A stretch of DNA of 64,000 nt from an uncultured Candidatus Saccharibacteria bacterium. Lineage in GTDB: Bacteria > Patescibacteriota > Minisyncoccia > Phycocordibacterales > JAKFXT01. Location of the stretch: positions 2,663-66,662 of the forward strand of contig CAZIPS010000003.1 in NCBI GenBank assembly GCA_964541455.1. Direction: 5' to 3'. A model generated the notes under the pieces. The model ran no database searches. It worked only from the letters and a program-made list of their open reading frames with translations, and was not told the origin of the DNA. Positions 6,932 through 35,507 of this stretch are shown here, one piece after another (the first letter of the stretch is position 1; every line of letters begins with the position of its first letter). A program made the translations under genes and the position numbers.

Positions 6932-8293
6932 ATGGCTGATGATCTCCAGAAACTTGTAGACTCGACACTTAAAGGCAGTTTGTCGCAGGCTTCGTCGCTT
7001 CCTAAAGAAGAGGAAGATGAGGACTCGAACCTCACTGCCGAAGAAAAGAAAGCAAAAGCCGATCTCCGCAAGGAAATAGAGAAGGATAACGACCAACCCT
7101 CAAAACAAGGAGATCGTGGAGAGAGCATACACCCCCCCACACCACAAGAAATCGCTGAAGCAGTCCGCCTTCACCAGACAAGAGCCCCTGAGGGAAAAGA
7201 GATTAGTGCCGAAATCGTTCCTCGCCCAAAAACAATTGCTGATCTTCTACACCTTGAAGCCGAAGTTGCCAAAAATCCTCCCAAAGCCGAGCCTGCCGGA
7301 ACTTCGAAAATCCGTGAGGGGCTTAAGAACATTACTGTCACTCAAAAAACAGATTCATCAATACTCAAAAAAATACGCACATTCAAGACAGATGTGGCCG
7401 AAGCCATGACGACAGGGAAGAGTACCTATATAGGTATAGCCACCGCCCAACTCCTCAAAAATAAAAAGGAGGAGACCTCCCAAGAAACGGTCATTGATAA
7501 AGAAAAACCAGCTCCGCCTCCTCGAGCACCTGAACCTGTTTTTGAAAAAGAACCTAGCCACTCTTTTACCCCATTTTTTATAGGTATTAGCCTTCTGCTT
7601 ATACTTTCAGGGGTTGGTGGGGTGGTGTATATACAATACATTAAAAACAGTCCTATAAGTGGCCCCGTAACTGCTGCTATTGCTTCACATTTTGTCCCCA
7701 CGCAATTTGAAACGATTATAGAAACAGAGGGAAAGAATGCTTCATATTTGCGTTCGGCTGTTGCTGCAGAACGCAAAGACGCGCCTGGTGAACTCAACAA
7801 CCTTGGCAATATCAAACTCGTAGAGAGTAAAGATGCCACTCCACTTAAAGAACTCACTACTTCTGATTTTATCGCCTCCTTTGGCATGCGCCCACCCACT
7901 GAACTACTGCGCACCCTTGATCCAACTTTTATCCTTGGTATACATCGATTCCCGGCAAATCAATCGTTTCTTATTTTTAAAACCGACACCTACGAAACCG
8001 CACGAGACGCCCTACGAGAGTGGGAAGTCACTACACTTGAAAGTGATGTGGCAAAATTACTCCGCTCTCCGTCTGACTTTGATCTGACAAGTGCCTCGAG
8101 TTCAAACCTTGTGCGCCAACCCTTTAGTGATCGCGTACTTAAAAACAAAGACTGCCGCGTACTCGTCGACAAACAGGGGGATGTTATTTTCTTCTATACC
8201 TTTATCGATCGTACGTATATTGTGTTTGGTAGTGATCCTGAAACACTTGGCGCCGTACTCACTAGCCTTGCGAGCCGCAAAGTAACACAATAA
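6932..8293 (+). CDS. Hypothetical single-pass membrane protein with a charged Lys/Glu-rich N-terminus and a Pro-rich segment
   Basis: 453 aa. Low-complexity acidic/basic N-terminus, PAPPPRAPEP stretch, one TM helix (FFIGISLLLILSGVGGVVYI), and a C-terminal globular part with no recognisable family. Confidence 0.5.
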   Translation: MADDLQKLVDSTLKGSLSQASSLPKEEEDEDSNLTAEEKKAKADLRKEIEKDNDQPSKQGDRGESIHPPTPQEIAEAVRLHQTRAPEGKEISAEIVPRPKTIADLLHLEAEVAKNPPKAEPAGTSKIREGLKNITVTQKTDSSILKKIRTFKTDVAEAMTTGKSTYIGIATAQLLKNKKEETSQETVIDKEKPAPPPRAPEPVFEKEPSHSFTPFFIGISLLLILSGVGGVVYIQYIKNSPISGPVTAAIASHFVPTQFETIIETEGKNASYLRSAVAAERKDAPGELNNLGNIKLVESKDATPLKELTTSDFIASFGMRPPTELLRTLDPTFILGIHRFPANQSFLIFKTDTYETARDALREWEVTTLESDVAKLLRSPSDFDLTSASSSNLVRQPFSDRVLKNKDCRVLVDKQGDVIFFYTFIDRTYIVFGSDPETLGAVLTSLASRKVTQ

Positions 8294-10329: not shown

Positions 10330-11343
10330 TTAAAAAGGATTGGCTGCACCGCGAATTTCAAAGTGTAGATGCACCCCAGTTGCCTTGCCTGTGCGTCCCA
10401 TTTCTCCAATAATCTGCCCTTGAGTAACTATTTCTCCAACCCCTACAAGGTTTTTACTCAAGTGACCATAAAGTGTTTGCGTCCCATTATCATGCTTAAC
10501 CACAATATAATTTCCATATCCAGCATTCCATCCCGACGTACGACTGATAATAACTACGCCTGAAGCTGAAGCCATGATGGGTGCCCCAAAATAACTTGCG
10601 AGATCCACTCCGTTGTATCCATGTAACCCTTGTGTTTTGACTCCTCCTAGAATAGGCCGAGCGTAATAATTCTCGATAAGTGGACCGCTTGCACTCCTCC
10701 TCCATGGGTTAGTTCCGCTTGATGTTCTTCCTACACCAGAAGATTGTGGTTGTGGCGCAATTTCACCATCAGGAACGATGATGGTATCCCCAACAGCAAG
10801 ATCACCTCCTATTTCGATATTGTTATATTGTGCAATTTCATCCGCATCAGCTTTATACTTTTTGGCGAGCGTTTTTAGAGTATCACCCTTAACTACTGTG
10901 TGACGCACCCCTGAAATAGGGAGGATGACGAGGGTGTCGCCTGGTTTTACCACCCCACCTTTAATATCGTTGGCCCAGGCTATAGTATTTTTTGAAACAT
11001 TGAACATCTTTGCAATTGAAGAAAGAGAATCTCCGGCGCGCACCACGTAGAGACTAATATGGCTACTTTCTCCGTCTTTTTCCTCCACTTCAAGCGCTGT
11101 TCCCGAAGGACCGTCCTCTGACAAAAGGGCTGTTCCTCCAACCACGGTAATATCCCCCCCACCCTTAGCTGGGTTAGGGTCTAGGTTTACTGCTGCCTGC
11201 AAAAGCGTCATGTTCTGGCTATTTACAGAGCGTTCTTCGGTACTTGTGCTCTTATTTTTTGCAAAAAGGTTAGTAAAAGCCGAAAAAACCCCCGCTTCTG
11301 CAGAAAAAGGCGCCAACAAAGAAATGAGGAGTGAAAAAAACAC
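10330..11343 (-). CDS. Secreted LysM-domain M23 family metallopeptidase (peptidoglycan endopeptidase)
   Basis: Signal peptide, two LysM-like segments (GDSLSSIAKMFNVS, GDTLKTLAKKYKADADEIAQYNN), and M23 motifs (HGYNGVDLA ... GRTGKATGVHLHFEI). Confidence 0.9.
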   Translation of the reverse strand: MFFSLLISLLAPFSAEAGVFSAFTNLFAKNKSTSTEERSVNSQNMTLLQAAVNLDPNPAKGGGDITVVGGTALLSEDGPSGTALEVEEKDGESSHISLYVVRAGDSLSSIAKMFNVSKNTIAWANDIKGGVVKPGDTLVILPISGVRHTVVKGDTLKTLAKKYKADADEIAQYNNIEIGGDLAVGDTIIVPDGEIAPQPQSSGVGRTSSGTNPWRRSASGPLIENYYARPILGGVKTQGLHGYNGVDLASYFGAPIMASASGVVIISRTSGWNAGYGNYIVVKHDNGTQTLYGHLSKNLVGVGEIVTQGQIIGEMGRTGKATGVHLHFEIRGAANPF

Positions 11344-11609
11344 CCCATTTCGTAGGAAAATAGTGAAAAACGTACTATGTGGCTCTTCCTGTGTAGACGT
11401 AGAAAGAGTGTGTGAAATGTCTTTTTTTATAAGCCGATGAATATTAGGGTCTCTCCTTACAGCAATATATGGCTCTAATAAGCCATAGCAACCTCTCCGT
11501 ATTCCTTCTTTATATAAACTATAGACCTCCTGCCACGTAAGTCAACCTTGACGAAATGGGGTTGTGGATAAATAAAATAAGGCCTACATAGTGCTATACT
11601 ATTACTGTT

Positions 11610-14600
11610 ATGTCTACAAATCCTCCTCCTGGTGATCCTGCGATTGAAAAAGGTGCCACCCTTTCGTCAAAAACCCTCGTCGAACAGGCGCTTTCCGTTC
11701 TTCAAGACAAGGAAGATCTCGAAATTAAGGATATCCTCGCTGAACTTAGCAAAAACAATACCCCCCTTGAAGAAGGCGAGGTGATTAAGGAACTCGAAGA
11801 GCTTGGGTATGATATTGAAATAGTCGACCCTCCAACTAAAACTAAGGCTTCAAACACTGAAATTCCTCCTACCCACCATACACCCTCACCAGTAAAAAAA
11901 ATTCCTTCACTTAAAGAACTAAATGCTAGGGTCAAGACGGTCGTTGATGAAAAGTATGAAGGGAAAAGACCTCCAGCACTAGAAAAGGATGTAGCGAGGA
12001 TAATGAGGGATATTTCAAACACTCTCAAGCTTATTGACGCACGTGAGGGAAAGAAAAAAACACCAGAAGACAAAGAAAAGCTCGATGATCTGTATCTTGC
12101 CTTTGAACGCCTTGTTGAGGATTTTGAAAAACATACTCCAAGCCTAGAGGAGCCAAAAAAAGAGCCGCACACAGAAAAAGACCCAGCGAAGACCGCTGCG
12201 CACCGTACCATCCCCACCCTTAAAGAACTCCGAGCTCGTGTACAGACTGTTGTTGATGAAAAGTATGGAGGGGAGAATCCTCCGGCCCTTGAGCAAGACA
12301 TCCGCGGCATAGTCAAAAATATTACTGACATTCTTGCGGAAGTCGAAAAGCGCAAAGGTAAAAGAAAAACGCGCGAAGAAAAAGAGGAGCTTGATAATCT
12401 GTATCTTGCTTTTGAACGCCTTGTTGAGGATTTTGAGAAACATACTCCGAACCTTGAAGGAGCGAAAACAGAAACTGGAGACACAACAGAGCCCGCAAAG
12501 AGAGGATGGAGTAGGGAAATGCAGCTACATACAGAACCAGCACATACCGAGGAAGAAATAGTGTTTTTGCGGAGTAAGGGATGGACTGATGATGATTTCA
12601 AACGACACAAAGAAGCTCACATAAGTGAGGAATTACTACGCGCTGAAAAAGCCCGTCTTGAGCGAGAAATTAAGCGTCTCGAAGAAAGGGACGCTCTTAC
12701 TCCCAGTGCTCTTTTTGAAGGTGAGAAATGGCTTTTGAAATACAACCTTAGACCAAATCTAGCCGAAATTAACAAAACCTTAGCCAAAATAGAGGCTAAA
12801 AAAAGTCCTGCCATACCAAGCGCTGTTGCTACACCCTCGCCAGTTGATACCTCACCTAACAGTACCCCCTCAAAAACACCCGAGACTTCAAATGATCTAT
12901 TGGAGATTGCTGAACTAGCTAAACTCCACCAAAAAAGACTTTCACTTCAACAACTTGTTGAAAGTACCATGGACCTCGACGCTCGAACTCTTTTTGAAGA
13001 AGACTTACAAAAGGTTGAGGAAGAAATACAAGAGCGCATGAAAACTGCTCCACAAGGAGGAGCGTATGAAGCGAGTGCCCGTATTGAACATGAACTTATT
13101 TCGACACCTTCCTCCCCACACGCAACTAATCCCGACCTTCTTACGCTTGAAGGACAGAAACAGGCGCGCATCGATGCCCTCCTTAATCGTCTTACCGAAA
13201 ACCCCGATGACGTAGCTGTCCTTACCGAAGTTGCTATAGGCCTTGCCAAAGAAACCAATGACCCTGATACTATCGCCGAAAACAATTTAGTAGTCACCAT
13301 GGCACAAGATGAAACAGGCCCCTCCGCACTTAGTCACCAACAAGAGATGTTAAGGGAGGAGATAGGTATACTTCAAGCAAAGCTTACTGCATTAGGATTT
13401 ATTGCCCATAAACACCCTGTAAACATTGCCACCCCCCCTTCGCCAGAAACTGAAACACAAGGAGAAACTGCCGCACTTGAAAAAGCGGCTACTGCGGGAA
13501 TCGAGCACATAGAGCGTATGCTCGATGAAAATATGGCCAATGCAAAAAAGAATTGGACTACCTACGGCAAAGCATGGGCCTTAAATGCTTTTACCGAAAT
13601 TGGCGAGCAGTATAGTAAAGCCCCCTTGAAATTAAAACTTGCCCTTTCTGCCACCCTTATTGGGGCAGGATTATTTGGTGGGGGAGCAGTGGCTGGAGCT
13701 ATCGGCAGTATTGCTCTTGCACAAAGAGCATTTGGTTTTGCAGGCACTTATGTTGGTGTAGAGGCTGTTCTTGCGCGTGTCCGTGAACAAAAATTTAGAA
13801 AAGGAAAAGAGTTAGGACTTTTTACGAGTCACACAAAAGCGACCGCTTCAGTACTCGCTGCGCTTCTCGGTTCCGCTGCGCCATACGCTTTTAGTTATGC
13901 TATGGAAGCAAGTGAAAGACAGATCGGATCACTCATCTCGAGCCCCGAAGGACAGAAAATTTTAGCTGCCTTTTTTAGCAATGAATATGTGCAGACCATC
14001 AAAGGTGCCATTCAAGACAATCTCCCTTCTCCAAAAGGAGTACCGGTTGAACGGGTAACTACAGCGTCAACTACAACTGCTGCCGAACCATCAGATGCTA
14101 CACATCAAATATCACCTACAACAAATGTCGAACATGCAACTTCTACCATTAAACAATTTACTGATGCCATCGATCGACCAGGGGACTCTGTGTGGCGCTC
14201 GATGAAAGAAATTATCCGCAACAATGCAGAAGATTTCGGTTGGAAAGAAAACAACATCACAAGCAAAGAATTGTGGCTTGATCGTCGTGTTGCCGAAATC
14301 ATGCAAAACAATCCTGACATTGCGCAGCAAAACTTAGTCCACGAAGGGGGCCAAGTACATCTTGAAATTGTTGATGGAAATATAAACGCCTACTACGAAC
14401 CCGCCAAAGGTTTTGAAAATGCCCCACAAAGTCTTCCAGAAAAAATTATGCCAACACCTGTAACCACTGAGTACGCACCACAAGAAACCTCTCTCTCCAC
14501 AACACCTACATCCCCAGTTGAACAGACTGATGTGCCGATCATTATCCATCCAACTGATATACCGGACGAAACTCCTCCAGCTTCGGAAGATGGGCAAATC

Positions 14601-15041
14601 TTTGAAGGGGCAGGGAATCGTACTTCAACCTCTATTGAAACAAAAGTTGCTGACACTCCGAAAACAACAGTGGAGCAAGTACTTTCAAAGGCAGAACTTT
14701 TACATGTTCAAACAGAAGTGGTTACCCGCATCGATAGTGAGTTTGCAAAACCATCTTTCTTTGGGTTTGGTGGAGTTCCAGGAGTTAATACCACTGAATG
14801 GTCAGACATCCAAAAAATTCCCGCAAGTGAAATTCTCGCTGCGCCAAGTTTTGAAAAATTAAATATTCGATTTAAAGAACTTGTTCCAGACCTCACCCCA
14901 TATGCATATGAAAAAGCGCACCACCTTCTTCTTGAAGCAAGTAAACAAAGTGGTACCATTCCAGTAAGTTCAGAAGATTCTTATACATACCTTACCCGAT
15001 CAGTTAAAGAACAATTTATTAAAAGTAAATACATCGCATAA
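11610..15041 (+). CDS. Giant hypothetical protein (1143 aa) with an internal tandem repeat, coiled-coil regions and a Gly-rich TM segment
   Basis: Continuous ORF. Two consecutive ~97-aa repeat units (IPSLKELNARVKTVVDEKYEGKRPPALEKD... and IPTLKELRARVQTVVDEKYGGENPPALEQD...), then a Gly/Ala-rich hydrophobic stretch (LIGAGLFGGGAVAGAIGSIALA). No recognisable catalytic domain. Confidence 0.6.
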   Translation: MSTNPPPGDPAIEKGATLSSKTLVEQALSVLQDKEDLEIKDILAELSKNNTPLEEGEVIKELEELGYDIEIVDPPTKTKASNTEIPPTHHTPSPVKKIPSLKELNARVKTVVDEKYEGKRPPALEKDVARIMRDISNTLKLIDAREGKKKTPEDKEKLDDLYLAFERLVEDFEKHTPSLEEPKKEPHTEKDPAKTAAHRTIPTLKELRARVQTVVDEKYGGENPPALEQDIRGIVKNITDILAEVEKRKGKRKTREEKEELDNLYLAFERLVEDFEKHTPNLEGAKTETGDTTEPAKRGWSREMQLHTEPAHTEEEIVFLRSKGWTDDDFKRHKEAHISEELLRAEKARLEREIKRLEERDALTPSALFEGEKWLLKYNLRPNLAEINKTLAKIEAKKSPAIPSAVATPSPVDTSPNSTPSKTPETSNDLLEIAELAKLHQKRLSLQQLVESTMDLDARTLFEEDLQKVEEEIQERMKTAPQGGAYEASARIEHELISTPSSPHATNPDLLTLEGQKQARIDALLNRLTENPDDVAVLTEVAIGLAKETNDPDTIAENNLVVTMAQDETGPSALSHQQEMLREEIGILQAKLTALGFIAHKHPVNIATPPSPETETQGETAALEKAATAGIEHIERMLDENMANAKKNWTTYGKAWALNAFTEIGEQYSKAPLKLKLALSATLIGAGLFGGGAVAGAIGSIALAQRAFGFAGTYVGVEAVLARVREQKFRKGKELGLFTSHTKATASVLAALLGSAAPYAFSYAMEASERQIGSLISSPEGQKILAAFFSNEYVQTIKGAIQDNLPSPKGVPVERVTTASTTTAAEPSDATHQISPTTNVEHATSTIKQFTDAIDRPGDSVWRSMKEIIRNNAEDFGWKENNITSKELWLDRRVAEIMQNNPDIAQQNLVHEGGQVHLEIVDGNINAYYEPAKGFENAPQSLPEKIMPTPVTTEYAPQETSLSTTPTSPVEQTDVPIIIHPTDIPDETPPASEDGQIFEGAGNRTSTSIETKVADTPKTTVEQVLSKAELLHVQTEVVTRIDSEFAKPSFFGFGGVPGVNTTEWSDIQKIPASEILAAPSFEKLNIRFKELVPDLTPYAYEKAHHLLLEASKQSGTIPVSSEDSYTYLTRSVKEQFIKSKYIA
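11898..12480 (+). repeat. In-frame tandem duplication (two copies of about 290-310 bp) within the giant ORF
   Basis: Near-identical nucleotide stretches, for example CTTGC(C/T)TTTGAACGCCTTGTTGAGGATTTTGA(A/G)AAACATACTCC at about 12091 and 12401. The protein repeat units are about 60% identical. Confidence 0.8.
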
Positions 15042-15043
15042 GT

Positions 15044-15349
15044 ATGAATGAACAAGACATCGCAGCACTCGCCGCAAAAGATCTCGGAATTGAAACATTA
15101 AGCCCAGACATGCAAAAAGATGTTTTAGCGCGCCTCGGAGAAGCATCACTTAAAGGAGCGCTCCTTGAAATATTTGAAAAGCTCCCGCCAAGCGCTGAAG
15201 AAGAATTCAAGAAAATTTCTGAAAGCGGTGATCTTGCAAAGACACAATATTTTTTGAAACAACAGATTCCTGACTACGAGTCCATTATGAAACGGCACAT
15301 CACAAAAACCGTTGAAGAATTCAAGCGAGTAAAAGCTGGACTTTCCTAA
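15044..15349 (+). CDS. Small hypothetical protein (101 aa) immediately downstream of the giant ORF, probably co-transcribed
   Basis: Its ATG sits 3 nt after the giant ORF stop. Predicted alpha-helical, no recognisable domain. Confidence 0.45.
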   Translation: MNEQDIAALAAKDLGIETLSPDMQKDVLARLGEASLKGALLEIFEKLPPSAEEEFKKISESGDLAKTQYFLKQQIPDYESIMKRHITKTVEEFKRVKAGLS

Positions 15350-15356
15350 CAAAAAT

Positions 15357-15386
15357 CCCCTTTCTTTAGAAAAGAGAGAGGGGTGT
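15357..15386 (+). terminator. Intrinsic terminator after the giant-ORF operon
   Basis: CCCCTTTCTTTAGAAAAGAGAGAGGGG hairpin. Confidence 0.5.
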
Positions 15387-15498
15387 CCGCTTAGTTTCAC
15401 AATTAAAACTCCCTAGAGAAAGCCATGTGATCTAACATGCGCTTTTTTGTTTTACGCCATAAGTTACACACCAGCTTCTCCGTGTTACACTTCTTCTC

Positions 15499-19063: not shown

Positions 19064-20128
19064 ATGGAAAGCTTTGCAAAATTTTTGCCGAGCCGGCAGT
19101 TTGGGGTTGTTATTGCCTCGATCTTTTTAGCCTGCGCATTAGTAGGTAGCGTGTTCTATCTCAAAAAAAATAAGGAACAGAAAAGTGACATTGCACTTTT
19201 AAATGGGCCGAGTATCGAAGCGGTAACTGATGCTACTAAAAATCTAAGTGATGATGTTGCTGATATCGATACTGACCATGATGGCCTTAAGGATTGGGAA
19301 GAAGTCCTATGGGAAACCGACCCTAAAAACCCCGACACCGATCATGATGGCACCCCTGATGGGGAAGAAGTAAGACTTGGGAGAAATCCTCTAGTAAAGG
19401 GACCTAACGACAGTCTCAAAGAGGTGAGTAAAAATATAAGTACTGCATCATCCGCCCCGATTGTACTCACCCCCACTGATATCGTGGCACGTGATTTTTT
19501 CTCAAAATATCTTGAGGCTAAGCAAACAGGAAAAGATATTGATGCCAAGACCCAAGAGGAAATCATTGCTTCTGTTATTTCACGCCAAGACCTCGTGCAG
19601 AGCGCCAAAGCATATAGCAAAGAACAGCTAACCATAAGTACTAAAAATGATGAGGCGTCACTAAGGGCATATGGCAACGCTATGGGGCTTATTTTTAAAA
19701 ACACTGCCACTTGGAAAGAAAGTGAGATAGACATCATGCAAGAAGCTCTTAACAAAAATGATGAAAAAAGACTTGAGGCACTGGATACTAACATTAATGG
19801 ATACCAATCTATTCTTAATCAAAGCCTAAAAGTGGTTGTACCAAGCAAAGCAGTTGATGTCCATCTCCGCTATATAAACGCTTATAGCAAAATCGTCACC
19901 GCACTTACTGCTATGAAAAATACATTTAAAGACCCCGTAAGTGCCCTTATCCTTCTTGGTAAATACCCAGATGCTATTACCGAACTCCACCAGTCTTTTA
20001 TCGACGCGAGAAGTTTTTTTACCCGAAACAATATTACCTTTGACCTAAAAACTGAAACAGGAATTTTCTTTGCTAATTTTGCTGATGCAGTCGACATCAA
20101 GACAAAGGAGAATGCTGGAACCCAATAA
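19064..20128 (+). CDS. Membrane-anchored protein with thrombospondin-type-3-like Ca-binding repeats (DTDHDG...DPKNPDTDHDGTPDGEE)
   Basis: 354 aa with an N-terminal TM helix and two DxDxDG calcium-binding-like repeats. The remainder is unrecognisable. First gene of the T4SS-like block. Confidence 0.5.
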   Translation: MESFAKFLPSRQFGVVIASIFLACALVGSVFYLKKNKEQKSDIALLNGPSIEAVTDATKNLSDDVADIDTDHDGLKDWEEVLWETDPKNPDTDHDGTPDGEEVRLGRNPLVKGPNDSLKEVSKNISTASSAPIVLTPTDIVARDFFSKYLEAKQTGKDIDAKTQEEIIASVISRQDLVQSAKAYSKEQLTISTKNDEASLRAYGNAMGLIFKNTATWKESEIDIMQEALNKNDEKRLEALDTNINGYQSILNQSLKVVVPSKAVDVHLRYINAYSKIVTALTAMKNTFKDPVSALILLGKYPDAITELHQSFIDARSFFTRNNITFDLKTETGIFFANFADAVDIKTKENAGTQ

Positions 20129-20133
20129 TCTAT

Positions 20134-21747
20134 ATGCTAGAACTTCTTTTTAAAATTAAAAAATCTTTTTACGCAAAAATTCTTGTATCTTTTCTTATTA
20201 TCGCCTTTTTCGCTCCCATGGCACTCCCACCAAAAGCAGATGCAGGGGGAATGGCAGTCTTCGATTCAATTGGTGCAGCTCTTAAAACCGCCGGTAATGC
20301 AATTTTGACTATTATAAGCACTATTTCAAATGCGATTATTGGTGCCGGTATCCAAGCTCTTGTTACTGCCAAATACATCTTAGGCCCCCTTGCCACAACA
20401 ATTGCGAAAATGATCCTGCGGGGTATTACGGCAAGTATTATCGCTTGGATAAGTAATGGGTTCCAAGGAAGCCCCTCCTTTATCCAAGATCCCAAACGAT
20501 TCTTCACTAATGTAGCTGATCAGGCAATCGGTGCAGTTCTACTATCAAATGAAGCAACTAAATGGATGTGTACCCCATTTGCAATCAATATAAAACGAGC
20601 CCTTATCTACAATCGCTCTTTCTATCAACGTTCTCAGTGTAGCCTCACGCAAGTCGTAAATAACTTCAAAGGCTTTGCAAGTGGACTTAATAACCAATTC
20701 GGCAGTCTTGGTGGTTGGACTGCGTGGAACACTATGACATACGAGCCACAAAATAATCCCTACGGAGCCTATGCCCTCTTTAATATGCAGGTTGATGTAC
20801 AAGTAACCGGCGCCATCAATACCCAAGCCCGCTTACTCGACTGGGGTAAAGGTTTTCTTTCCTGGAAAGACCCAACATGTGTCGAAAATGCTAAAAGAAA
20901 TTCCGACCTTGAGGGCTATAAAACAGGCGATGAAATCGTTCCCCTTGAAGAAAGTGAGGGCAATACCATTAGTCCAAACACTGACCCAAATACCTGCCCG
21001 ATTCTTACTCCAGGTGATGTTATTGCAAATCAAATAAACAAGACTATCGGAAGCGATGTTGATCAGCTTGTAGGTGCACAAGAGATCAATCAGATTATTA
21101 GTGCACTCCTTTACCAACTTGCAGTTAAAGCACTTGGTGGCTCTGGCCTTCTTGGACTTGGCGCTTCATACTCCGATCCTTACGGCACAAATGGAAGCTA
21201 TGCTCAACAACTTCTCGCAAATGATCAACAGGTATTCAATCAAACTCGCAGTGACTTAAACCAACAAATATACAACCGCATCACCACCGAAAACAACTAC
21301 TCTGCAACAAAAAACCAAACACTTTCTCTTATAGATCTTTCTGCTAATAAAGCGTTTTCAGTCCTTAATTGCTACTTTGCAACTTCTTCTACTCCACTTG
21401 GTATCAACAACAGCATGCGTGCTACTGATATAGCAGGAGCTTCAAGTTCACTTGCCTTTATAAACGGCTTCAAGCGTTCTATACAACGTGACGTCGACAT
21501 ATCAGATATAAACATCAGTAACCTCCAACGCCTTGTTGATGCCTCAAACGCCTTAGACTACAGCCACAGAGATACTCTGCAACAAATCTCATCACAATTC
21601 TCACAACTCATCACGCAAATCCACTCTGACGGCGATGTTATAAACGCCCAGTTTGAACGTGACCAGACTATACCTGACGCCATGAAAGCTCCTGATGCCG
21701 ACAATGACACTCGCCTTAATCGCTGTTACACCGAACCTATTAACTAG
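20134..21747 (+). CDS. Hypothetical exported protein (537 aa) in the T4SS-like cluster
   Basis: N-terminal hydrophobic anchor or signal, then a Cys-containing Gly/Ala-rich region. No recognisable domain. Confidence 0.45.
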   Translation: MLELLFKIKKSFYAKILVSFLIIAFFAPMALPPKADAGGMAVFDSIGAALKTAGNAILTIISTISNAIIGAGIQALVTAKYILGPLATTIAKMILRGITASIIAWISNGFQGSPSFIQDPKRFFTNVADQAIGAVLLSNEATKWMCTPFAINIKRALIYNRSFYQRSQCSLTQVVNNFKGFASGLNNQFGSLGGWTAWNTMTYEPQNNPYGAYALFNMQVDVQVTGAINTQARLLDWGKGFLSWKDPTCVENAKRNSDLEGYKTGDEIVPLEESEGNTISPNTDPNTCPILTPGDVIANQINKTIGSDVDQLVGAQEINQIISALLYQLAVKALGGSGLLGLGASYSDPYGTNGSYAQQLLANDQQVFNQTRSDLNQQIYNRITTENNYSATKNQTLSLIDLSANKAFSVLNCYFATSSTPLGINNSMRATDIAGASSSLAFINGFKRSIQRDVDISDINISNLQRLVDASNALDYSHRDTLQQISSQFSQLITQIHSDGDVINAQFERDQTIPDAMKAPDADNDTRLNRCYTEPIN

Positions 21748-21749
21748 CT

Positions 21750-24218
21750 ATGTTACGCACTGCAAAAAAAGCTCTTCTTACGTCCGTCTTTCTTGCAGGA
21801 GCTTTTTTGCCTTTTACTACTTTTGCGCAAACAATTAATGATAGTGATACTGGCGGGGGAGTAAGTGTTAGTGCACTCAAAAACACTTCTGCTCAAACCG
21901 TCACCGCGTCAGAAATACAACTGCAAGCAAGAGAGAATGCTCGTGACGCATCACTACAACAATCCCTTGGCAACGGGAACGTCACTGACCCAGGGGTAGC
22001 TGCTGCAGCTCCCTCTGGTACATTTTCTGCCCCAGGAACCGCTCCCTCGCTCTCTTCTTCGGGGGCCCAAGCAACTAAAGACCTCAACCTTGCTTCAGTT
22101 GACCTTTGTTCAATTAGCTTTACAGGAACCTTCCAACCACTCAACTGTCTCGGGTACGGACTTCTCAAAATAGGGGGGTGGGTAGCAACGGTAGGCGGTG
22201 TCTTTCTCAACCTCTCGATTGATTTTACTGTGCTTAAAATGTCTACCGTCATTAACGGCACTGGTGCTATTAATGCTGCTTGGAAAGTGTTCCGCGATCT
22301 TTCAAATATTTTCTTTATTTTTATCCTTATTTATATCGCTATAAGCACTATTATCGGGACCGCTGGAGGACAAACCAAAAAAATGCTGATCAATGTCATC
22401 ATTGTGGCACTTCTCATCAACTTCAGCATGTTTTTTACTAAAGTTGCAGTCGACACCTCAAATATTCTCACCATTCAGTTCTTCAACTCTATTAGCAAAG
22501 GAGACAATAGCTGGGACAACGGCCTCTCTTGGGTCTTTATGAATGCCTCGCGCCTCACTACCATCTACCAAGCGGGGAACACCATCGCCACAAGTCCAAA
22601 TGGCAAAGCGTTTCTTAGTTACAACTTTCTCATTGTTGGGATTATGGGGCTCGCCTTTGCCCTCGTGCTTGCTTTTGTGTTTATGGCGATTGCCATTATG
22701 TTTATTTCTCGTTTTGTCACTATTATTTTCCTTATTGTACTTTCACCGCTCGCTTTTATGGGCTTTGCGGTGAGCAAATTAAGTGGCAAATGGCATCAAT
22801 GGCTCTCTGTGCTCACAGAACAAATCTTCTTCGCTCCTGTTATGATGGCTATGCTTTGGACTGTTGCGGTTATTATAAATAGTGACGGCTTCCGTGCAGC
22901 AGTTGCCTTTTCTGACCCGGCCAATAACTTCGCCGACCTCTTCACCCTTTCTTCCGTTACAGGGTCTATATATATAGTCTTAAACTTTAGCCTCCTTGTT
23001 GCCCTTCTTATTGGTGGCCTCCTTATATCAAAGAACTTTAGTCATACAAGTGCGAACTTTGCAATGAAACTCGCAGGGGGGGCCTCTTTTGGGGCAGCGG
23101 CGTGGATTGGGCGCAAAACAGGAGGGTGGGCTGGAAACAAACTTGCCAAATCAGAACGCTTGCAGAAATTTGCAGCTAATAATCCTACTGTTGGTATGTT
23201 TGCACTTAAAGCGGTCAAGGGGGTTGCTTCTGCCAGCTTTGACGCTCGCAATATTCCCCACGCAAGCGACTATCTCGGCAAGGGACCTGGGACAGGGGGT
23301 TATGTTGGCGAACTTGAAGCTCAAGTAAAGAAACGTCAAGAGGATGCAAAACTTCTCAAAGACCTCAAGCTATATCAAGACTCGAAAACTGAAGGGGAGG
23401 CAAAGGCTCACAAAGAAACAGTTGAGGAGAAAGACAAAAAAGTGGTTGAGCTTAACAAGCAGATGGCTAACTTTATTGCCGCTGGCAACAACCTTAACGA
23501 TACACGCTACAAGGAGTTTGAGAGGGAGAAAGCTGAAGCGGTTAAGGCACGTGATGAAGCTAAGAAAAAACTTGAGACCCTCAATAAGGACCAGACCAAG
23601 ACCCAAACAGGGGAGCAGACCTATGCTAAGAATCTTACTAAGGGCACCATTGCTGCTATCATGACTCGCCTTGCTGCAGAGCGTGAAAAATCTCAAGAGA
23701 AGATTGAGGAATCATATACCAAGGACCGTCAAAAGAAAGACAGCGAATGGGCCAAAGAATTTAATCTTAAGGAGATTAACCGACAAATTGCTTCTCTTGA
23801 TGCAGAAATCGAGTCTCTTGGGAGCTCGGTCTTGAATGTCACCGAAGAGGTAAAAAACTGGAATGAGCAGATTGCTAAAAATAACAAAGAAATTGAAAAA
23901 ATAACTCTAGACCAAAAAAATAATCCAAATGTTGATATCATCGCTTCAAACAAAAGAAGAAAGATTATTGCGGAGGAAAACGGAAAAATACAGGAAAGCA
24001 TCAATGCAGTAAAAGCTAATGAGTCAACTATTGCCGAACAAAAGAAAATTCGACTCATAGCAGAAAGAGAAAAGCTTATTAATCAACGAAAAGAGATTCA
24101 AAATAAAAAGGATAGAGATGCTCTTCTAAAAACACTTGTTGACGCAACAAAACCGGAAGAGGCTCAAGGAGAAGAAAAGAAGGGTGAGGATAAGCCAAAA
24201 AAGGATGATGCACACTAA
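21750..24218 (+). CDS. VirB6/TrbL-like polytopic membrane protein with a C-terminal Lys/Glu-rich coiled-coil extension
   Basis: 822 aa with a signal peptide, at least 6 TM helices in a TrbL/VirB6-like arrangement (LIVGIMGLAFALVLAFVFMAIAIMFISRFVTIIFLIVLSPLAFMGF) and a long charged coiled-coil tail. Confidence 0.55.
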   Translation: MLRTAKKALLTSVFLAGAFLPFTTFAQTINDSDTGGGVSVSALKNTSAQTVTASEIQLQARENARDASLQQSLGNGNVTDPGVAAAAPSGTFSAPGTAPSLSSSGAQATKDLNLASVDLCSISFTGTFQPLNCLGYGLLKIGGWVATVGGVFLNLSIDFTVLKMSTVINGTGAINAAWKVFRDLSNIFFIFILIYIAISTIIGTAGGQTKKMLINVIIVALLINFSMFFTKVAVDTSNILTIQFFNSISKGDNSWDNGLSWVFMNASRLTTIYQAGNTIATSPNGKAFLSYNFLIVGIMGLAFALVLAFVFMAIAIMFISRFVTIIFLIVLSPLAFMGFAVSKLSGKWHQWLSVLTEQIFFAPVMMAMLWTVAVIINSDGFRAAVAFSDPANNFADLFTLSSVTGSIYIVLNFSLLVALLIGGLLISKNFSHTSANFAMKLAGGASFGAAAWIGRKTGGWAGNKLAKSERLQKFAANNPTVGMFALKAVKGVASASFDARNIPHASDYLGKGPGTGGYVGELEAQVKKRQEDAKLLKDLKLYQDSKTEGEAKAHKETVEEKDKKVVELNKQMANFIAAGNNLNDTRYKEFEREKAEAVKARDEAKKKLETLNKDQTKTQTGEQTYAKNLTKGTIAAIMTRLAAEREKSQEKIEESYTKDRQKKDSEWAKEFNLKEINRQIASLDAEIESLGSSVLNVTEEVKNWNEQIAKNNKEIEKITLDQKNNPNVDIIASNKRRKIIAEENGKIQESINAVKANESTIAEQKKIRLIAEREKLINQRKEIQNKKDRDALLKTLVDATKPEEAQGEEKKGEDKPKKDDAH

Positions 24219-24233
24219 TATATAATAGAGAAT

Positions 24234-25397
24234 ATGGAAGACACGAGTGTTCAACAGAAATTTGAAAAACTGCCGGCAGTTATTCGCGAAGCGATTACTT
24301 CTGTTGATTTTGCAGAAAAACTTCAAAACATAGGCAAGGCAAACAGCCTCCACCTCGATGAACTTGACGCGCTTTTTGAAGAAGTGGGATTTGTGATGCT
24401 TGGGGACACTCGCACGCAAGATTTTGGAGCTAAAATAAGCGAACGTCTCTCGCTTCGCCCAGATCAAGTTGCTCCTATAGTTAAAAGTGTTGATGAGGAA
24501 ATATTCCGCCCGATCCGCACTGCGCTCATCAGCCTCCACGACAATGAACCTCGTCGCATTACCGACGTCCCACTCCCTGCAGCAAGTGCACCTTCATATG
24601 TTCCCCCAGTTCCACAAAAAAACTCTTTACCCACAACCCCCGAAAGTAATCTTGCGCCAAAACCAATAACCGTTAAGGAGGAGTTGTCAGCTCCAACCAT
24701 ACACCCTATATACAATGATAAAAGTATAGAAACTCAAATACCAAGTTCCCCACAGACCCTAGGGGATGGAGTAGTGGTTACTCCAGAAATAAGCGCCCTA
24801 AACGAAGAAACGCCAACTCGCGAAAACCTTCTTAATGCTATTGAAGGGGAGAAAGAAATGGACCCCGCTCTCCTTACCCCACATCGCCAACTTGAATCCC
24901 AAGATCCACGCACCTATCTCATAGACAAAGAAGAATTTCTGAAGAAAATCACTGAACCAAGCAGTGGCTCCACCCCCGCAACACTTACCCCCAAAAAACG
25001 TTCGTTAGCCGAAGAAGCGGTGTTAGTAGCAAAGCGAAAAGTAGACCCAACTGCTCTAAATATGCAGAGCATTATAGCCAAAACACCGAAACCAACTACA
25101 GAATCAGCTCCTATTACTACTATCCCTCCTGTCCCCGCCACTCCTCCCACAATTACGTTGGATATTCCTCGCACTGAAGAACAGGCGTCTGTGCAAACAC
25201 CTCCCGAAGCAATCTATACACTTCCAAAAGAAATAGCCCCCACCCAACCCATCACCCTTGAAGCAAAACAGAAACTTACCTCCATGGTTCAGGTTCCTCG
25301 CGTCACAAGTAGAGTGAGCGCCCCGCTCACCGCTACTTCAACTGTCACTACAGAAACTACAGGAAGTAGGGTAGACCCATATCGCGAACCTATATAA
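24234..25397 (+). CDS. Hypothetical Pro/Thr-rich protein (387 aa) in the T4SS-like cluster
   Basis: Low-complexity P/T/S-rich C-terminal two thirds. The N-terminal 100 aa are globular and unrecognisable. Confidence 0.4.
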   Translation: MEDTSVQQKFEKLPAVIREAITSVDFAEKLQNIGKANSLHLDELDALFEEVGFVMLGDTRTQDFGAKISERLSLRPDQVAPIVKSVDEEIFRPIRTALISLHDNEPRRITDVPLPAASAPSYVPPVPQKNSLPTTPESNLAPKPITVKEELSAPTIHPIYNDKSIETQIPSSPQTLGDGVVVTPEISALNEETPTRENLLNAIEGEKEMDPALLTPHRQLESQDPRTYLIDKEEFLKKITEPSSGSTPATLTPKKRSLAEEAVLVAKRKVDPTALNMQSIIAKTPKPTTESAPITTIPPVPATPPTITLDIPRTEEQASVQTPPEAIYTLPKEIAPTQPITLEAKQKLTSMVQVPRVTSRVSAPLTATSTVTTETTGSRVDPYREPI

Positions 25398-25529
25398 AGC
25401 GTAAGCTTTGTGTTGTTTATACCACCCACCCTTAATCAACACGACATATCCTCTTATCTGCGCGACAAAGAGCGCAATCTCTTATATTATTAGAGATACC
25501 AAGCGCATTGTCGTTTCAGTATTTTTTAT

Positions 25530-26051
25530 ATGCAATTCCAAGTTCCTCAATTTATTGAAGTAGAAGACAAGCTTTTTGGTCCTCTTACCCTTAAACAATT
25601 CATTTATCTTGCTGGGGGAATAGGTGTTTCGGCGATCTTCTACCTTGTTATTCCTTACCACTTTATTGCCATAGTTCTTGCGGTTCCTTTCGTTGTTTTT
25701 GCGATTGCCTTAGCTTTCTACCGCATTAACAGTAAACCATTTGTTGAGGTGCTTGAGGCAGCACTTTCCTACTACTTTAAAAACAAGCTTTATATATGGA
25801 AGAAATCCGACAAGAAAATTGAGGATCGTCCAAAAGAAGAAGTATCTGAACCCTCTCTCGATACACTTTTTGCCCCACGCCTCTCTGAAAGCAAGCTCAA
25901 AGATCTCGCGTGGAGCCTTGATGTTACTGATAAAGTAATAAACAAAGAGGTTCAAAGGGGAGGGGGGTCCCGCATTACGTATAACGAAGACGAGCGCGAG
26001 AAAGTTGAGTTCCAGAAAAACTACGAAATTGGAGCTAAGGGGCACCTATAG
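25530..26051 (+). CDS. PrgI/VirB3-like small membrane protein
   Basis: 173 aa with two adjacent N-terminal TM helices (LAGGIGVSAIFYLVIPYHFIAIVLAVPFVVFAIALAFY) directly upstream of the VirB4 ATPase, matching typical PrgI-family topology and placement. Confidence 0.5.
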   Translation: MQFQVPQFIEVEDKLFGPLTLKQFIYLAGGIGVSAIFYLVIPYHFIAIVLAVPFVVFAIALAFYRINSKPFVEVLEAALSYYFKNKLYIWKKSDKKIEDRPKEEVSEPSLDTLFAPRLSESKLKDLAWSLDVTDKVINKEVQRGGGSRITYNEDEREKVEFQKNYEIGAKGHL

Positions 26052-26056
26052 AACAT

Positions 26057-26692
26057 ATGGCTACTGAACAAACATCAGCAACACAAGAATTCGTCCCTAT
26101 CAAAGAGGTACGTGACGGCATTGTCCTCCTTAAAGACGGAGGTCTGCGTGCAATTCTTCTAACCTCTTCTATTAACTTCGCCCTCAAATCACAGGACGAG
26201 CAAAATTCCGTTATTTTCCAATTCCAAAACTTCCTTAACTCTTTAGACTTTCCTGTAGAAATCTTCATTCAATCAAGGAAACTCGATATTCGCCCCTACA
26301 TTGCTCTCCTCGAAGACCGCTATCGAGATCAAGTTAATGATCTACTTAAAATACAGACTCGTGAGTACATCGAGTTCATAAAAAGCTTTACTGAAAGTGC
26401 TAATATCATGACTAAAAGCTTCTTTATTATTGTCCCCTACAATCCAGCAAGCCTTACCGCTGAATCAGTTGGTGGGTTCTTTAGTAAGAAAAAAGATGAA
26501 GACAAAACAAAGGATGCGGCTGCACGCTTCGAAGAAAACCGCAGCCAACTCGAGCAACGCATTGCTGTTATCGAACAAGGACTTATACGTACAGGAGTTC
26601 GTGTCGTACAATTAGGTACTGAAGAAATTATTGAACTTTACTACAAGATCTTTAACCCTGGAGAGCAGGACAAGCCAATTAAGTTGCCATAA
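26057..26692 (+). CDS. Putative N-terminal segment of the VirB4-like ATPase (split gene), or a separate T4SS accessory protein
   Basis: 211 aa ending at a TAA 2 nt before the ATG of the Walker-A-containing ORF, which is in a different frame. Combined length of about 817 aa matches full-length VirB4/TrbE. Confidence 0.4.
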   Translation: MATEQTSATQEFVPIKEVRDGIVLLKDGGLRAILLTSSINFALKSQDEQNSVIFQFQNFLNSLDFPVEIFIQSRKLDIRPYIALLEDRYRDQVNDLLKIQTREYIEFIKSFTESANIMTKSFFIIVPYNPASLTAESVGGFFSKKKDEDKTKDAAARFEENRSQLEQRIAVIEQGLIRTGVRVVQLGTEEIIELYYKIFNPGEQDKPIKLP

Positions 26693-26694
26693 TT

Positions 26695-28515
26695 ATGGGT
26701 GTTTTCGATTTCCTTATTACGAATAAGAAAAAAGAAGCAGGGAATGCGCTCACCGCTATTTTGCCGCGAGACATCTATGAATCTGGTGTTTTGGAACTTA
26801 AAGACATTATTGCCCCCTCTGCACTTAAAATCACGCCCAAAGAGCTCAATTTGGGCGAGAAAATTATTCGTACCTTTTTTGTTATCTCTTATCCTCGTTT
26901 TCTTTCGGAAAGTTGGTTTGCGCCGATTATTAACCTCGACAAGGTGTTTGACGCTTCTATTTTTATTCACCCTATTGAAACCGCTCGCATTTTAAGGCAA
27001 TTCCAGAAAAAAGTAGCGGAGGTACAAAGCCAAATCCACGAGAGAGAGGAGAAGGGGTTAGTGCGTGATCCCGTGCTTGATACCGCCTACCAAGACCTTG
27101 AACAGCTTCGTGACGGCCTTCAGCAAGCACAAGAACGTATTTTTGATGTTGGGCTCTATATATCTATTTACGGTGATTCTGATGCCGAACTTGATAAGGT
27201 AGAGTCTGAAATTAAATCTATCCTCGAATCAAAGTTGGTGTATATAAAACCAGCCCTCTTTCAACAAGAACAAGGGTTTAAAAGCGTTATTCCTCTTGGA
27301 AATGATGAGTTAGCAGTTCATTCAAAACTTAACTCTTCGCCACTTTCAAGTGTTTTTCCTTTCATCTCTTTTGACCTCACTTCAGACAAGGGAATTCTTT
27401 ATGGCATCAACCGACACAATGCAAGTTTGGTACTTTTTGACCGCTTCTCTCTTGAAAATTACAACTCTGTCGTCTTTGCGAAGTCTGGATCTGGTAAGTC
27501 CTACACCACCAAACTCGAGATCCTCCGTACCCTTATGTTTGACACTGAAGTGATTGTTATTGATCCCGAGCGCGAATACGAATATTTAGCCGAAGCCACC
27601 GGCGGACGCTATTTTAATGTTTCGCTTAATTCTGAACACCACATTAACCCTTTTGATCTTCCCATCCCACGCGAAGACGAATCCCCAGCTGATATTCTTC
27701 GCAGCAACATTGTAAACCTCGTAGGGCTTTTCCGTATCATGATGGGGGGGCTCACTCCCGAAGAAGATGCCATTATTGACCGCGCAATTACTGAAACCTA
27801 TGCCCTCAAAGACATTACCCCTGAATCAGACTTTACTGCTATCGAACCCCCACTTATGGCTGACTTTGAACTTGTGCTTTCGGGCATGGAAGGAGGGGAT
27901 TCCTTGGCACAACGACTTACTAAATACACTAAGGGAACATGGGCTGGCTTTATCAACAAGCCGACAAACGTCGACATTAATAAAAAGTTTGTTGTGTTTT
28001 CTGTGCGTGATATGGAGGATGAGCTTAAACCTGTTGCCATGTATATCATTACGCACTTTATTTGGAATGCTATACGCAAAGAAATTCGAAAACGTCTCCT
28101 TGTTATCGATGAAGCATGGTGGATGATGAAATCAGATGATACTGCCTCTTTCCTCTATAGTCTTGTAAAACGTGGTCGTAAATACTTCCTTGGAGTAGCG
28201 ACAATTACCCAAGACGTCGATGACTTCCTTAAAAGCCAGTATGGGCTCCCCATTATCACCAACTCATCGCTTCAACTTCTCCTTAAACAATCTCCATCAT
28301 CAATCGATAATGTTCAAAAGATATTTAACCTTACCGAAGAAGAGAAATATCTACTCCTTGAGTCAGACGTAGGGGAGGGGATTTTCTTCGCAGGACTAAA
28401 ACACGTGGCGATTAAGATCATTGCCTCATACACCGAGGACCAGATTATTACCTCTGACCCTTCTCAAGTGCTTTCGATCAGAAAAGCCAAAAATGATTTG
28501 CGCCTTGCTTCTTAA
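26695..28515 (+). CDS. VirB4/TrbE/CagE-family type IV secretion ATPase (C-terminal NTPase portion)
   Basis: 606 aa with Walker A (VVFAKSGSGKSYTTK) and a Walker B-like motif (LLVIDEAWWMM). Confidence 0.8.
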   Translation: MGVFDFLITNKKKEAGNALTAILPRDIYESGVLELKDIIAPSALKITPKELNLGEKIIRTFFVISYPRFLSESWFAPIINLDKVFDASIFIHPIETARILRQFQKKVAEVQSQIHEREEKGLVRDPVLDTAYQDLEQLRDGLQQAQERIFDVGLYISIYGDSDAELDKVESEIKSILESKLVYIKPALFQQEQGFKSVIPLGNDELAVHSKLNSSPLSSVFPFISFDLTSDKGILYGINRHNASLVLFDRFSLENYNSVVFAKSGSGKSYTTKLEILRTLMFDTEVIVIDPEREYEYLAEATGGRYFNVSLNSEHHINPFDLPIPREDESPADILRSNIVNLVGLFRIMMGGLTPEEDAIIDRAITETYALKDITPESDFTAIEPPLMADFELVLSGMEGGDSLAQRLTKYTKGTWAGFINKPTNVDINKKFVVFSVRDMEDELKPVAMYIITHFIWNAIRKEIRKRLLVIDEAWWMMKSDDTASFLYSLVKRGRKYFLGVATITQDVDDFLKSQYGLPIITNSSLQLLLKQSPSSIDNVQKIFNLTEEEKYLLLESDVGEGIFFAGLKHVAIKIIASYTEDQIITSDPSQVLSIRKAKNDLRLAS

Positions 28516-28520
28516 TATTC

Positions 28521-29192
28521 ATGCCTCCCGAGCTTAAAGAAAATCGAATACCCACTCATACTGCGGGGTTTATGCTCGCCGTAGCCGCTTTTTTTGACCT
28601 TTTACAAATATTTTTTAACCTTATTCTAATCGGTTTTCTCATAAACTGGACGATTACCCTTATTTCATTTTTAACCTTTTTTGTTTGGTTTAAACTTTAT
28701 GGTGTAAACCTAGGCGATAGCGCTAAGAAAATAGCGCTTTGGCTCACCGACTATGCCTTCGATATTTTTAGTGGAGGGATTTTCCCTTCGATTTTTATTA
28801 GCACCCTTATCACTATTCTTATAGTTAAGTCAGACGATGCGCTTCGTAACCAAGGTATTGACCTCAACCTCTCAACCTCTGCCTCTTATCGCAAAAAAGT
28901 GGCGGAAAACAGGAGGGCATACCAAGCATCACTACAAAGTAACGAAGAGGAGAGTGCAGAGGGTGGGGAAGAGTCTCCCGAGCGTTTCAAAGAAACATTA
29001 TCTCGTGTTTCCCGTAGTGGAGCAGTCCCAGGGAACGAGAAAGGGGCTGCTACCACACGGGTACCCCTCACCTCAAGCGCCCCCACAGTTATCCCAAACA
29101 ATAATCAAAAAACAGAAAATAATAGCGGAATTCTTGGTAGAATAAATAGAACTTCAAACAAAAGCAGTGAACCCTATGTTAAAGCCGTTTAA
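28521..29192 (+). CDS. Hypothetical polytopic membrane protein (223 aa) in the T4SS-like cluster
   Basis: At least 3 TM helices followed by a charged C-terminal tail. Overlaps the next gene by about 26 nt. Confidence 0.45.
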   Translation: MPPELKENRIPTHTAGFMLAVAAFFDLLQIFFNLILIGFLINWTITLISFLTFFVWFKLYGVNLGDSAKKIALWLTDYAFDIFSGGIFPSIFISTLITILIVKSDDALRNQGIDLNLSTSASYRKKVAENRRAYQASLQSNEEESAEGGEESPERFKETLSRVSRSGAVPGNEKGAATTRVPLTSSAPTVIPNNNQKTENNSGILGRINRTSNKSSEPYVKAV

Positions 29193-30195: not shown

Positions 30196-30199
30196 TTTT

Positions 30200-30832: not shown

Positions 30833-30835
30833 TAT

Positions 30836-35315: not shown

Positions 35316-35474
35316 GTATGTGGAAAATATGTTGGTAATAACTGAAAAAGGTGAGGGAAAGTATGTAAGTTATCCAGTGATTAAAAAAAGCTAGAGGTAT
35401 ATTCCACAAAAAAGAATGGTAGTTATAAAAAAATATAAGATAAAAAACCTATATACCACCTACTATAATAACCT

Positions 35475-35490
35475 TATCCACTTATCCACT
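35475..35490 (+). promoter_or_regulatory. Two tandem perfect DnaA boxes (TTATCCAC TTATCCAC) in the AT-rich dnaA-dnaN intergenic region, the putative oriC
   Basis: CCTTATCCACTTATCCACTACG within the 192-bp AT-rich spacer 35316-35507. Confidence 0.7.
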
Positions 35491-35507
35491 ACGTAATTAT
35501 CTGTTGT

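Follow-up and report, generated by a model that had tools for sequence, protein, structure and literature searches.

What does the longest gene in a 64,000-nucleotide (nt) stretch of DNA from an uncultured Candidatus Saccharibacteria bacterium encode, and is its internal repeat a young, surface-exposed region suited to host attachment, as an initial annotation had supposed? The stretch (i.e., the window: assembly GCA_964541455.1, contig CAZIPS010000003.1, positions 2,663 to 66,662, forward strand) contains no open reading frame (ORF) longer than that at 11610..15041 (+), which encodes 1143 amino acids (aa), as the annotation had it. We use the label BIG for this ORF and its homologs. The ORF call, copies on other contigs and an exhaustive family search delineate a protein with a modular helical N-terminal half, a membrane core with three predicted spans, and two C-terminal domains predicted to lie outside the cell. 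Together with the short gene that follows it, a member of family DUF5663, BIG defines a previously uncharacterized two-gene module that is restricted to Parcubacteria/Paceibacteria, includes a membrane protein whose predicted ectodomain is divergent and LysM-like, and occupies a slot beside a conserved wall hydrolase. We propose, with about an even chance of being right, that BIG is an accessory transmembrane tether or adaptor that connects the cell wall to the cytoplasm and acts with its DUF5663 partner.

Domain anatomy and predicted membrane topology of BIG

Searches with full-length BIG against Pfam, NCBIfam and PDB sequences returned nothing significant, which agrees with the earlier statement that the protein has no enzymatic domain. 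When 1.84 billion representatives were searched exhaustively with HMMER (cutoff, E < 1e-3), 24 relatives were recovered, which align over the C-terminal half only and share three conserved blocks, namely, the membrane core (aa ~655 to 770), a mid domain (aa 847 to 934) and a C-terminal domain (aa 1024 to 1143). Word-index searches with full-length BIG, the full-family alignment or the C-terminal-domain alignment retrieved only a 97% strain variant, a profile/protein search of genome contigs with the BIG protein found no locus, and no search pattern could be designed from the family alignments, given their divergence. The family is restricted to Paceibacteria, and BIG is not an orphan. Its description as lineage specific applies to the repeat only; the C-terminal half is common to a family that numbers at least 24 representative clusters. 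The assignment of the DNA to the candidate phyla radiation was sound, given that all 80 loci found with the neighboring M23 peptidase gene came from metagenome-assembled genomes of Patescibacteria, Parcubacteria or Paceibacteria.

The membrane core (aa 673 to 762; 13626..13895, +) is the most conserved block of the family. On the basis of hydropathy and family conservation, a Gly/Ala-rich hydrophobic block of ~50 aa accounts for two spans, and a further hydrophobic span follows after a loop rich in K and R; the Gly/Ala-rich membrane segment noted by the annotation corresponds to this core. Across the family, the core opens with a K-rich lead-in (G-E-W-Y-x-K-x-P-L-K-x-K-L), followed by the ~50-aa Gly/Ala block, the K/R-rich loop and a hydrophobic segment of ~20 aa. 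The total hydrophobic length is 60 to 90 aa in the family, a length that fits three spans. The N-terminal flank of the core is K/R rich (typically +3 to +6) and the C-terminal flank is acidic in most full-length family members; from these charges, the positive-inside rule predicts an N-in/C-out orientation. Most likely, the N-terminal ~670 aa of BIG, including the repeats, lie in the cytoplasm, and the LysM-like and C-terminal domains lie outside, where a LysM domain is expected. The proposed surface exposure of the repeats was not borne out: they lie ~380 aa N-terminal of the first span, BIG has no N-terminal signal peptide, and the flanking charges predict a cytoplasmic N terminus.

Several lines of evidence indicate that the mid domain (aa 847 to 934; 14148..14411, +) is a divergent LysM-like domain with an insertion. 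An AlphaFold2 (AF2) model built from the family alignment reached a predicted local distance difference test score (pLDDT) of ~90 for the mid domain and ~94 for the C-terminal domain; the membrane region and the linkers were modeled poorly. The predicted topology of the mid domain is beta-alpha-alpha-beta with an extra strand (i.e., beta-alpha-alpha-beta-beta), and two halves of a LysM signature split by an insertion could be recognized by eye. When the mid-domain alignment was compared by hhalign with 10 LysM repeats of the neighboring peptidases, the match had a probability of 74% and an E value of 2.7e-5 and covered template columns 2 to 50 of 50. A mid-domain hidden Markov model searched against all PDB sequences gave LysM chains as its best matches, namely, SafA (7r1l, E = 1.9e-6), for which the two halves both aligned, and LytE (8i2e, E = 4.7e-6), with YaaH, a chitinase and other LysM entries ranked lower. 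Pfam LysM was also the commonest subthreshold match (5 of 21 mid-domain segments; best E value, 0.0063), and LysM_OapA was matched once. We regard the domain as LysM-like by these profile comparisons and not as a certified member. In common with LysM proteins (PF01476; e.g., SafA and LytE of Bacillus subtilis), it has the halves Y-x-V-x-x-G-D-s-v-W-x-I and n-l-I-x-x-G-D/Q-x-I-x-l and the predicted beta-alpha-alpha-beta order. It differs from them in the 25- to 35-aa insertion between the helices, in the extra strand, and in its occurrence as a single copy inside a polytopic membrane protein rather than as tandem copies carried by a secreted hydrolase.

The C-terminal domain (aa 1024 to 1143; 14679..15038, +) is helical, conserved and under purifying selection, and it carries the motif F-G-x-x-G-F-x-G-F-G. 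Comparisons with PDB profiles, Pfam, and the PDB and BFVD collections by Foldseek gave no informative match. A stretch at 14730-14780 (aa ~1045 to 1055, FFGFGG) resembled the GFLGIG linker of a Jag/KhpB-like RNA-binding protein (PDB 3gku) at a nonsignificant E value of 0.2; there was no Pfam Jag_N match, and this link was not used.

The annotation had described BIG as coiled-coil rich; the N-terminal half was modeled by AF2 from a shallow alignment (pLDDT of 70 to 85 in structured parts) as helical bundles and hairpins separated by disordered linkers. It begins with a three-helix head domain (aa 18 to 70; 11661..11819, +; helices at aa 20 to 30, 39 to 48 and 55 to 64; pLDDT, ~83) that is alignable in the ortholog P0004. 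Two three-helix bundles follow, which coincide exactly with the two repeat units, and then a region with the motif L-R-x-x-G-W-T-D-D-D-F-x-x-H (aa 314 to 336; 12549..12617, +), where a short helical region is predicted, and a helical hairpin (aa 340 to 398). The motif is kept in the homolog P0002 and duplicated in P0004. Models of the N-terminal half had no significant Foldseek match among PDB structures. The head alone gave nonsignificant matches to winged-helix domains (Fur, ArgR and sigma-54; E values of 7 to 10; root mean square deviations of 2 to 3 A over 45 to 57 residues). A winged-helix head, if true, would suggest a membrane-tethered regulator; with such E values, this identity was not used.

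Combining these features, we envisage that BIG is cotranscribed with its small cytoplasmic DUF5663 partner. The cytoplasmic ~670 aa would present the three-helix head, the two three-helix-bundle units, the GWTDDDF motif and the helical hairpins on disordered linkers rich in Pro, Thr, Glu and Lys; the conserved Gly/Ala-rich core would cross the membrane three times; and the C-terminal ~370 aa would display the LysM-like domain and the helical end domain outside on Thr/Ser/Pro-rich linkers. The ectodomain would grip the peptidoglycan of the cell itself or, perhaps, of a host, and the cytoplasmic arm and DUF5663 would form a docking scaffold whose length is altered by module duplication. Of the elements of this picture, the domain anatomy, the family, the synteny, the patchy occurrence, the age of the duplication and the LysM-like signal were observed; the topology, the binding of peptidoglycan, the partnership with DUF5663 and the tether role are proposed.

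Such an architecture has analogs in better-known systems. From general knowledge, the SPOR-domain proteins FtsN and DamX and the OmpA/MotB anchors likewise combine an N-terminal cytoplasmic arm, a membrane anchor and a linker-borne, C-terminal wall-binding domain. BIG has no sequence or fold relation to them; it has three predicted spans instead of one, its putative wall-binding domain is LysM-like and not SPOR- or OmpA-like, and it is accessory and patchy, not core. The tandem three-helix bundles, placed on the cytoplasmic face of a protein with a membrane anchor, may also be compared, again by analogy and from general knowledge, with EzrA-type scaffolds. There is no detectable homology with these, and BIG differs in having only two units with disordered linkers and an anchor in the middle of the protein rather than at its N terminus.

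Several points weigh against the tether proposal. The number of spans comes from hydropathy only, AF2 confidence is low in the membrane region, and an even number of spans would put the LysM-like domain in the cytoplasm. No family member reached the gathering score of Pfam LysM PF01476 (20.9 bits), and a Foldseek search with the whole-region model returned neither a LysM structure nor any other significant match; binding of peptidoglycan by the mid domain is likewise a prediction. Because neither the C-terminal domain nor the N-terminal modules have informative homologs, "tether" or "scaffold" is a structural reading. Finally, the adjacency to the M23 peptidase may reflect the slot only, as the peptidase is present with or without the pair.

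The putative DUF5663 partner and its genomic slot

The partner gene (15044..15349, +) encodes 101 aa and starts 2 nt past the BIG stop. The interval given in the annotation extends to 15349 and thereby includes this separate gene. It is a bona fide member of DUF5663 (Pfam PF18908), scoring above the gathering cutoff (28.6 versus 23.7 bits; E = 2.2e-6; profile positions 4 to 84 of 84), and its product has no signal peptide and no membrane span. We know of no function assigned to the family, and the literature that was searched contained no mention of it.

DUF5663 stands behind a recognized BIG homolog in 8 of 9 related-species loci (at locus L032, it overlaps the BIG ORF as called); it was not found at L055, a short BIG-like locus. 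At five distinct loci in which the downstream DNA was read, it starts 3 to 140 nt past the BIG stop, and the pairing recurs in four more genome loci. The five loci had been reached through family members, and in each the BIG-DUF5663 pair adjoins a LysM-LysM-M23 peptidase. DUF5663 was seen only in loci carrying BIG, and a scan of metagenome contigs for DUF5663 found again only the contig of locus L007. These arrangements suggest a partnership that looks obligate, and they would provide DUF5663 with its first genomic partner.

The pair lies in a backbone of conserved genes (PNPase, orf453, DksA-like, ComM, M23, UvrD and RsmA). Its immediate neighbor, the divergently transcribed LysM-LysM-M23 peptidase gene identified by Pfam (10330..11343, -), belongs to this backbone and not to the accessory pair, as it stands beside uvrD across 80 Patescibacteria loci. 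Using the peptidase as a handle, we surveyed these 80 loci from GTDB species representatives and counted the slot between M23 and UvrD, where the pair lies, as empty when the two genes were <900 nt apart. It was empty in 57 of the 66 species-representative loci in which both genes were found, among them the two relatives with the most similar M23 (L011 and L012; 68% identity), and was occupied by a recognized BIG homolog in 5 of the 66; in L036, a sixth locus with BIG, the sequence stops short of uvrD. Over all 76 rows, with the window, the strain copies and the seed loci added, M23 and UvrD were adjacent in 59, separated by BIG in 10 and arranged otherwise in 7. Other cargo in the slot, which spans 11344-15498 in the window, comprises a secreted-looking 661-aa protein with two small ORFs (L033), a 223-aa membrane protein (L048) and a 338-aa protein (L072).

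Compared with the nearest module-bearing genomes (L006 and L007), BIG is 24 to 27% identical and DUF5663 41 to 42% identical to the respective counterparts, versus 64 to 71% for the flanking M23, UvrD and ComM. Judged by these identities, BIG and DUF5663 evolve several times faster than their neighbors, and the pair is a rapidly evolving accessory module that occupies a recurrent slot. Its G+C content equals that of the flanks, and recent horizontal transfer was not supported on this account. The ranking of BIG similarity across loci follows that of M23. Sequence relationships of this kind fit vertical descent with repeated loss; transfer of the pair between lineages is possible.

The position of the pair raises the alternative that BIG is a wall-remodeling or division adaptor that recruits or regulates the adjacent LysM-M23 endopeptidase, in the manner of FtsEX-EnvC/PcsB or the SPOR-domain division proteins. 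Wherever the pair was found, even at the rearranged locus L008, it adjoins the M23/LysM peptidase gene; the LysM-like ectodomain would suit such a role, and the cytoplasmic helical-bundle repeats resemble scaffold proteins. However, the peptidase is present in 80 of 80 loci and the pair is missing at most of these sites, so the peptidase does not need the pair. Moreover, the genes are divergently transcribed and not cooperonic, and the slot carries unrelated cargo elsewhere, so that the adjacency may be positional. We consider this adaptor role unlikely and prefer the tether proposal.

Two further observations concern the backbone. The listed GTG start of the peptidase gene at 10330-11343 (-) falls inside the signal or anchor sequence of its orthologs, which are 344 to 361 aa long, have a hydrophobic N terminus and share the conserved segment NPNPAKGGGDITVV; the gene may in fact start farther upstream. 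In addition, an ORF of 453 aa at 6932-8293 (+), with no Pfam match, lies between the PNPase and DksA-like genes in most of the 80 loci and is a conserved backbone gene with no assigned function.

Downstream of the pair, beyond uvrD, an ORF of 226 aa and rsmA, a cluster for a monoderm-type type IV secretion system (T4SS) begins at a distance of ~4 kb and extends over 19064-32116, followed by dnaA and dnaN (33975-36602). It includes genes for a TSP3-repeat protein (19064-20128), PrgI/VirB3 (25530-26051), a VirB4/TraG-P-loop ATPase (26695-28515) and a T4SS pilin (30200-30832), and also large ORFs of 537, 822 and 387 aa without Pfam matches. In Patescibacteria, the T4SS is near universal and typically located near dnaA/dnaN/ksgA, an origin-proximal arrangement described for Paceibacteria, and some VirB1 homologs carry M23/LysM domains, with virB4 linkage mainly in Paceibacteria (PMC12102498). 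Proximity to the cluster and these VirB1 homologs would be in keeping with BIG being an accessory factor or substrate of the T4SS. We deem this very unlikely, however: three genes intervene, the pair is patchy whereas the T4SS is near universal, and Pfam-type searches detected no similarity to T4SS components. A wider formulation would make BIG and DUF5663 a previously undescribed trans-envelope module used in episymbiosis. In it, a membrane-tethered, LysM-like wall sensor or adhesin, perhaps acting on the peptidoglycan of a host, would signal through the three-span core to DUF5663 and to the cytoplasmic arm, whose head bears a weak resemblance to a winged helix, and individual lineages would gain or lose the module at one constant chromosomal position close to the origin and the T4SS; we hold this to be quite improbable as a whole.

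Searches for a connection with anti-phage defense or phages were negative: PADLOC gave one weak match (candidate PDC-S32; E = 4.5e-4 over 37 residues; absent in relatives), PHROGs gave chance-level matches only, and no BIG relatives were found in IMG/VR.

Age and copy number of the internal duplication

The in-frame tandem duplication described by the annotation is real. Its two units, each of 99 aa and with a period of 309 nt, lie at 11895..12191 (+; aa 96 to 194) and 12204..12500 (+; aa 199 to 297), and both are predicted to be three-helix bundles (helices at aa 101 to 115, 122 to 144 and 152 to 174 in unit 1, with a pLDDT of ~80, and at aa 204 to 219, 225 to 247 and 255 to 277 in unit 2). 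A repeat search returned a 116-nt pair at a spacing of 309, self-BLASTN of BIG aligned ORF positions 301 to 549 with 610 to 859 (72.5% identity; E = 4e-33), and protein self-alignment paired aa 96 to 194 with aa 199 to 297. An internal alignment score of 295, against at most 73 for the shuffled sequence, places the repeat far beyond chance. The 44-nt stretches singled out earlier, 12091..12134 (+) in unit 1 and 12400..12443 (+) in unit 2, indeed differ at exactly two positions.

The duplication is not recent, as had been claimed. Over 297 nt, the units are 66.7% identical in nucleotides and 60.6% identical in amino acids, and 53 of the 99 nucleotide differences fall at third codon positions. 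By the Nei-Gojobori method, the proportion of synonymous differences (pS) is 0.69, the synonymous distance (dS) is ~1.8, which is effectively saturated, and the nonsynonymous distance (dN) is ~0.28; the saturation of synonymous sites indicates that the duplication is old. The repeat was not reported by Tandem Repeats Finder. The 44-nt stretch of unit 1 lies within an invariant 17-residue peptide, LYLAFERLVEDFEKHTP, in which the same codon is used at 14 of 17 residues, compared with 19 of 43 conserved positions in the rest of the unit (Fisher P = 0.007). This core is the sole part of the units with an excess of codon identity, a pattern compatible with a short gene conversion tract or with constraint at the nucleotide level. 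Within the tether proposal, the core would be held identical by selection, perhaps with gene conversion as well.

Related proteins help to place the event. P0004, from a different genus-level relative, has a single unit (aa 101 to 190; E = 3.5e-11), and in P0002 no unit is detectable. With one unit in P0004, the duplication must postdate the split from that lineage, yet it is old. The internal repeat of P0004 is instead the GWTDDDF region (aa 212 to 242 versus 262 to 292). As a different module is duplicated in each protein, the cytoplasmic arm evolves by module duplication in separate lineages, and the repeat of BIG is an ordinary, old domain duplication specific to its species lineage.

The copy number is stable in the available material. 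The exact 1143-aa BIG occurs on two other contigs (ENA assemblies), and a 97%-identical variant of 1139 aa occurs on three (two JGI and one Logan). These five contigs come from five different samples and two strains and from MEGAHIT-style, SPAdes-style, JGI and Logan sources; all carry two repeat units, with 0 to 1 nt differences over the 606-nt repeat region. The two strains, which are 2% divergent, have two copies each, and the variable copy number suggested earlier was thus not seen in any of the five contigs. That the repeat is a product of assembly expansion or collapse, a caveat raised with the initial annotation, can be dismissed as having next to no probability and no evidence in its favor; the units, at 67% identity, are too divergent to confuse an assembler, and the two-copy structure recurs in every contig of both strains.

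Strain variation and possible host attachment

Differences between BIG and the 97% strain variant are concentrated in the Thr/Ser/Pro-rich linker just past the last span (aa 801 to 850; 14010..14159, +), which holds 37 of the 71 nucleotide differences and a 12-nt indel. In this hot spot, pS is 0.24 and the proportion of nonsynonymous differences (pN) is 0.17, compared with ~0.03 to 0.04 and 0.002 to 0.005, respectively, elsewhere. Because both values are raised, the linker is better explained as a mosaic or recombinant segment or as a poorly constrained, low-complexity linker than by simple positive selection, and it is to these two possibilities that the strain comparison points. A diversity-generating retroelement was considered as a source of the hot spot and rejected as unlikely, since the window has no template-repeat copy and the substitutions are not adenine specific. 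The pN/pS ratio between the strains is 0.2 for the N-terminal 800 aa and 0.04 for the C-terminal ectodomains; it is ~0.08 to 0.11 for the neighboring genes and 0.32 for M23, the last from two substitutions only. PNPase, whose entry was out of register, is not counted among these neighbors. By this measure, the predicted ectodomains are under strong purifying selection.

These data bear on the suggestion that BIG is a host attachment adhesin, i.e., that its C-terminal ectodomain binds the wall of a host bacterium and that divergence and linker variation represent host adaptation. The source organism is a member of the Patescibacteria, whose cultivated representatives are episymbionts. An adhesin could also account for the LysM-like ectodomain, the much faster divergence of BIG relative to its neighbors, the strain hot spot in the linker directly beyond the membrane, and the accessory, patchy occurrence. 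Against this, the ectodomains show purifying and not diversifying selection (pN/pS of 0.04), a cytoplasmic location is predicted for the repeat region from which the idea arose, and an ectodomain of ~370 aa is short for crossing the cell's own wall and S-layer. Pfam and Foldseek searches found no adhesin-type domains, and no result lends specific support to host attachment. We therefore regard an adhesin as unlikely and favor the tether proposal, in which the gripped wall would belong to the cell itself or, perhaps, to a host. In either case, envelope proteins of Patescibacteria that touch peptidoglycan are candidates for the poorly understood interface between symbiont and host.

A minor observation concerns the start of the BIG gene. 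The region (11595-11612) shows no Shine-Dalgarno sequence, and a simple promoter scan did not detect a complete sigma-70 match there on the + strand. A -10-like TATACT ends 9 nt upstream of the BIG ATG, and the BIG mRNA may be leaderless or carry a very short leader.

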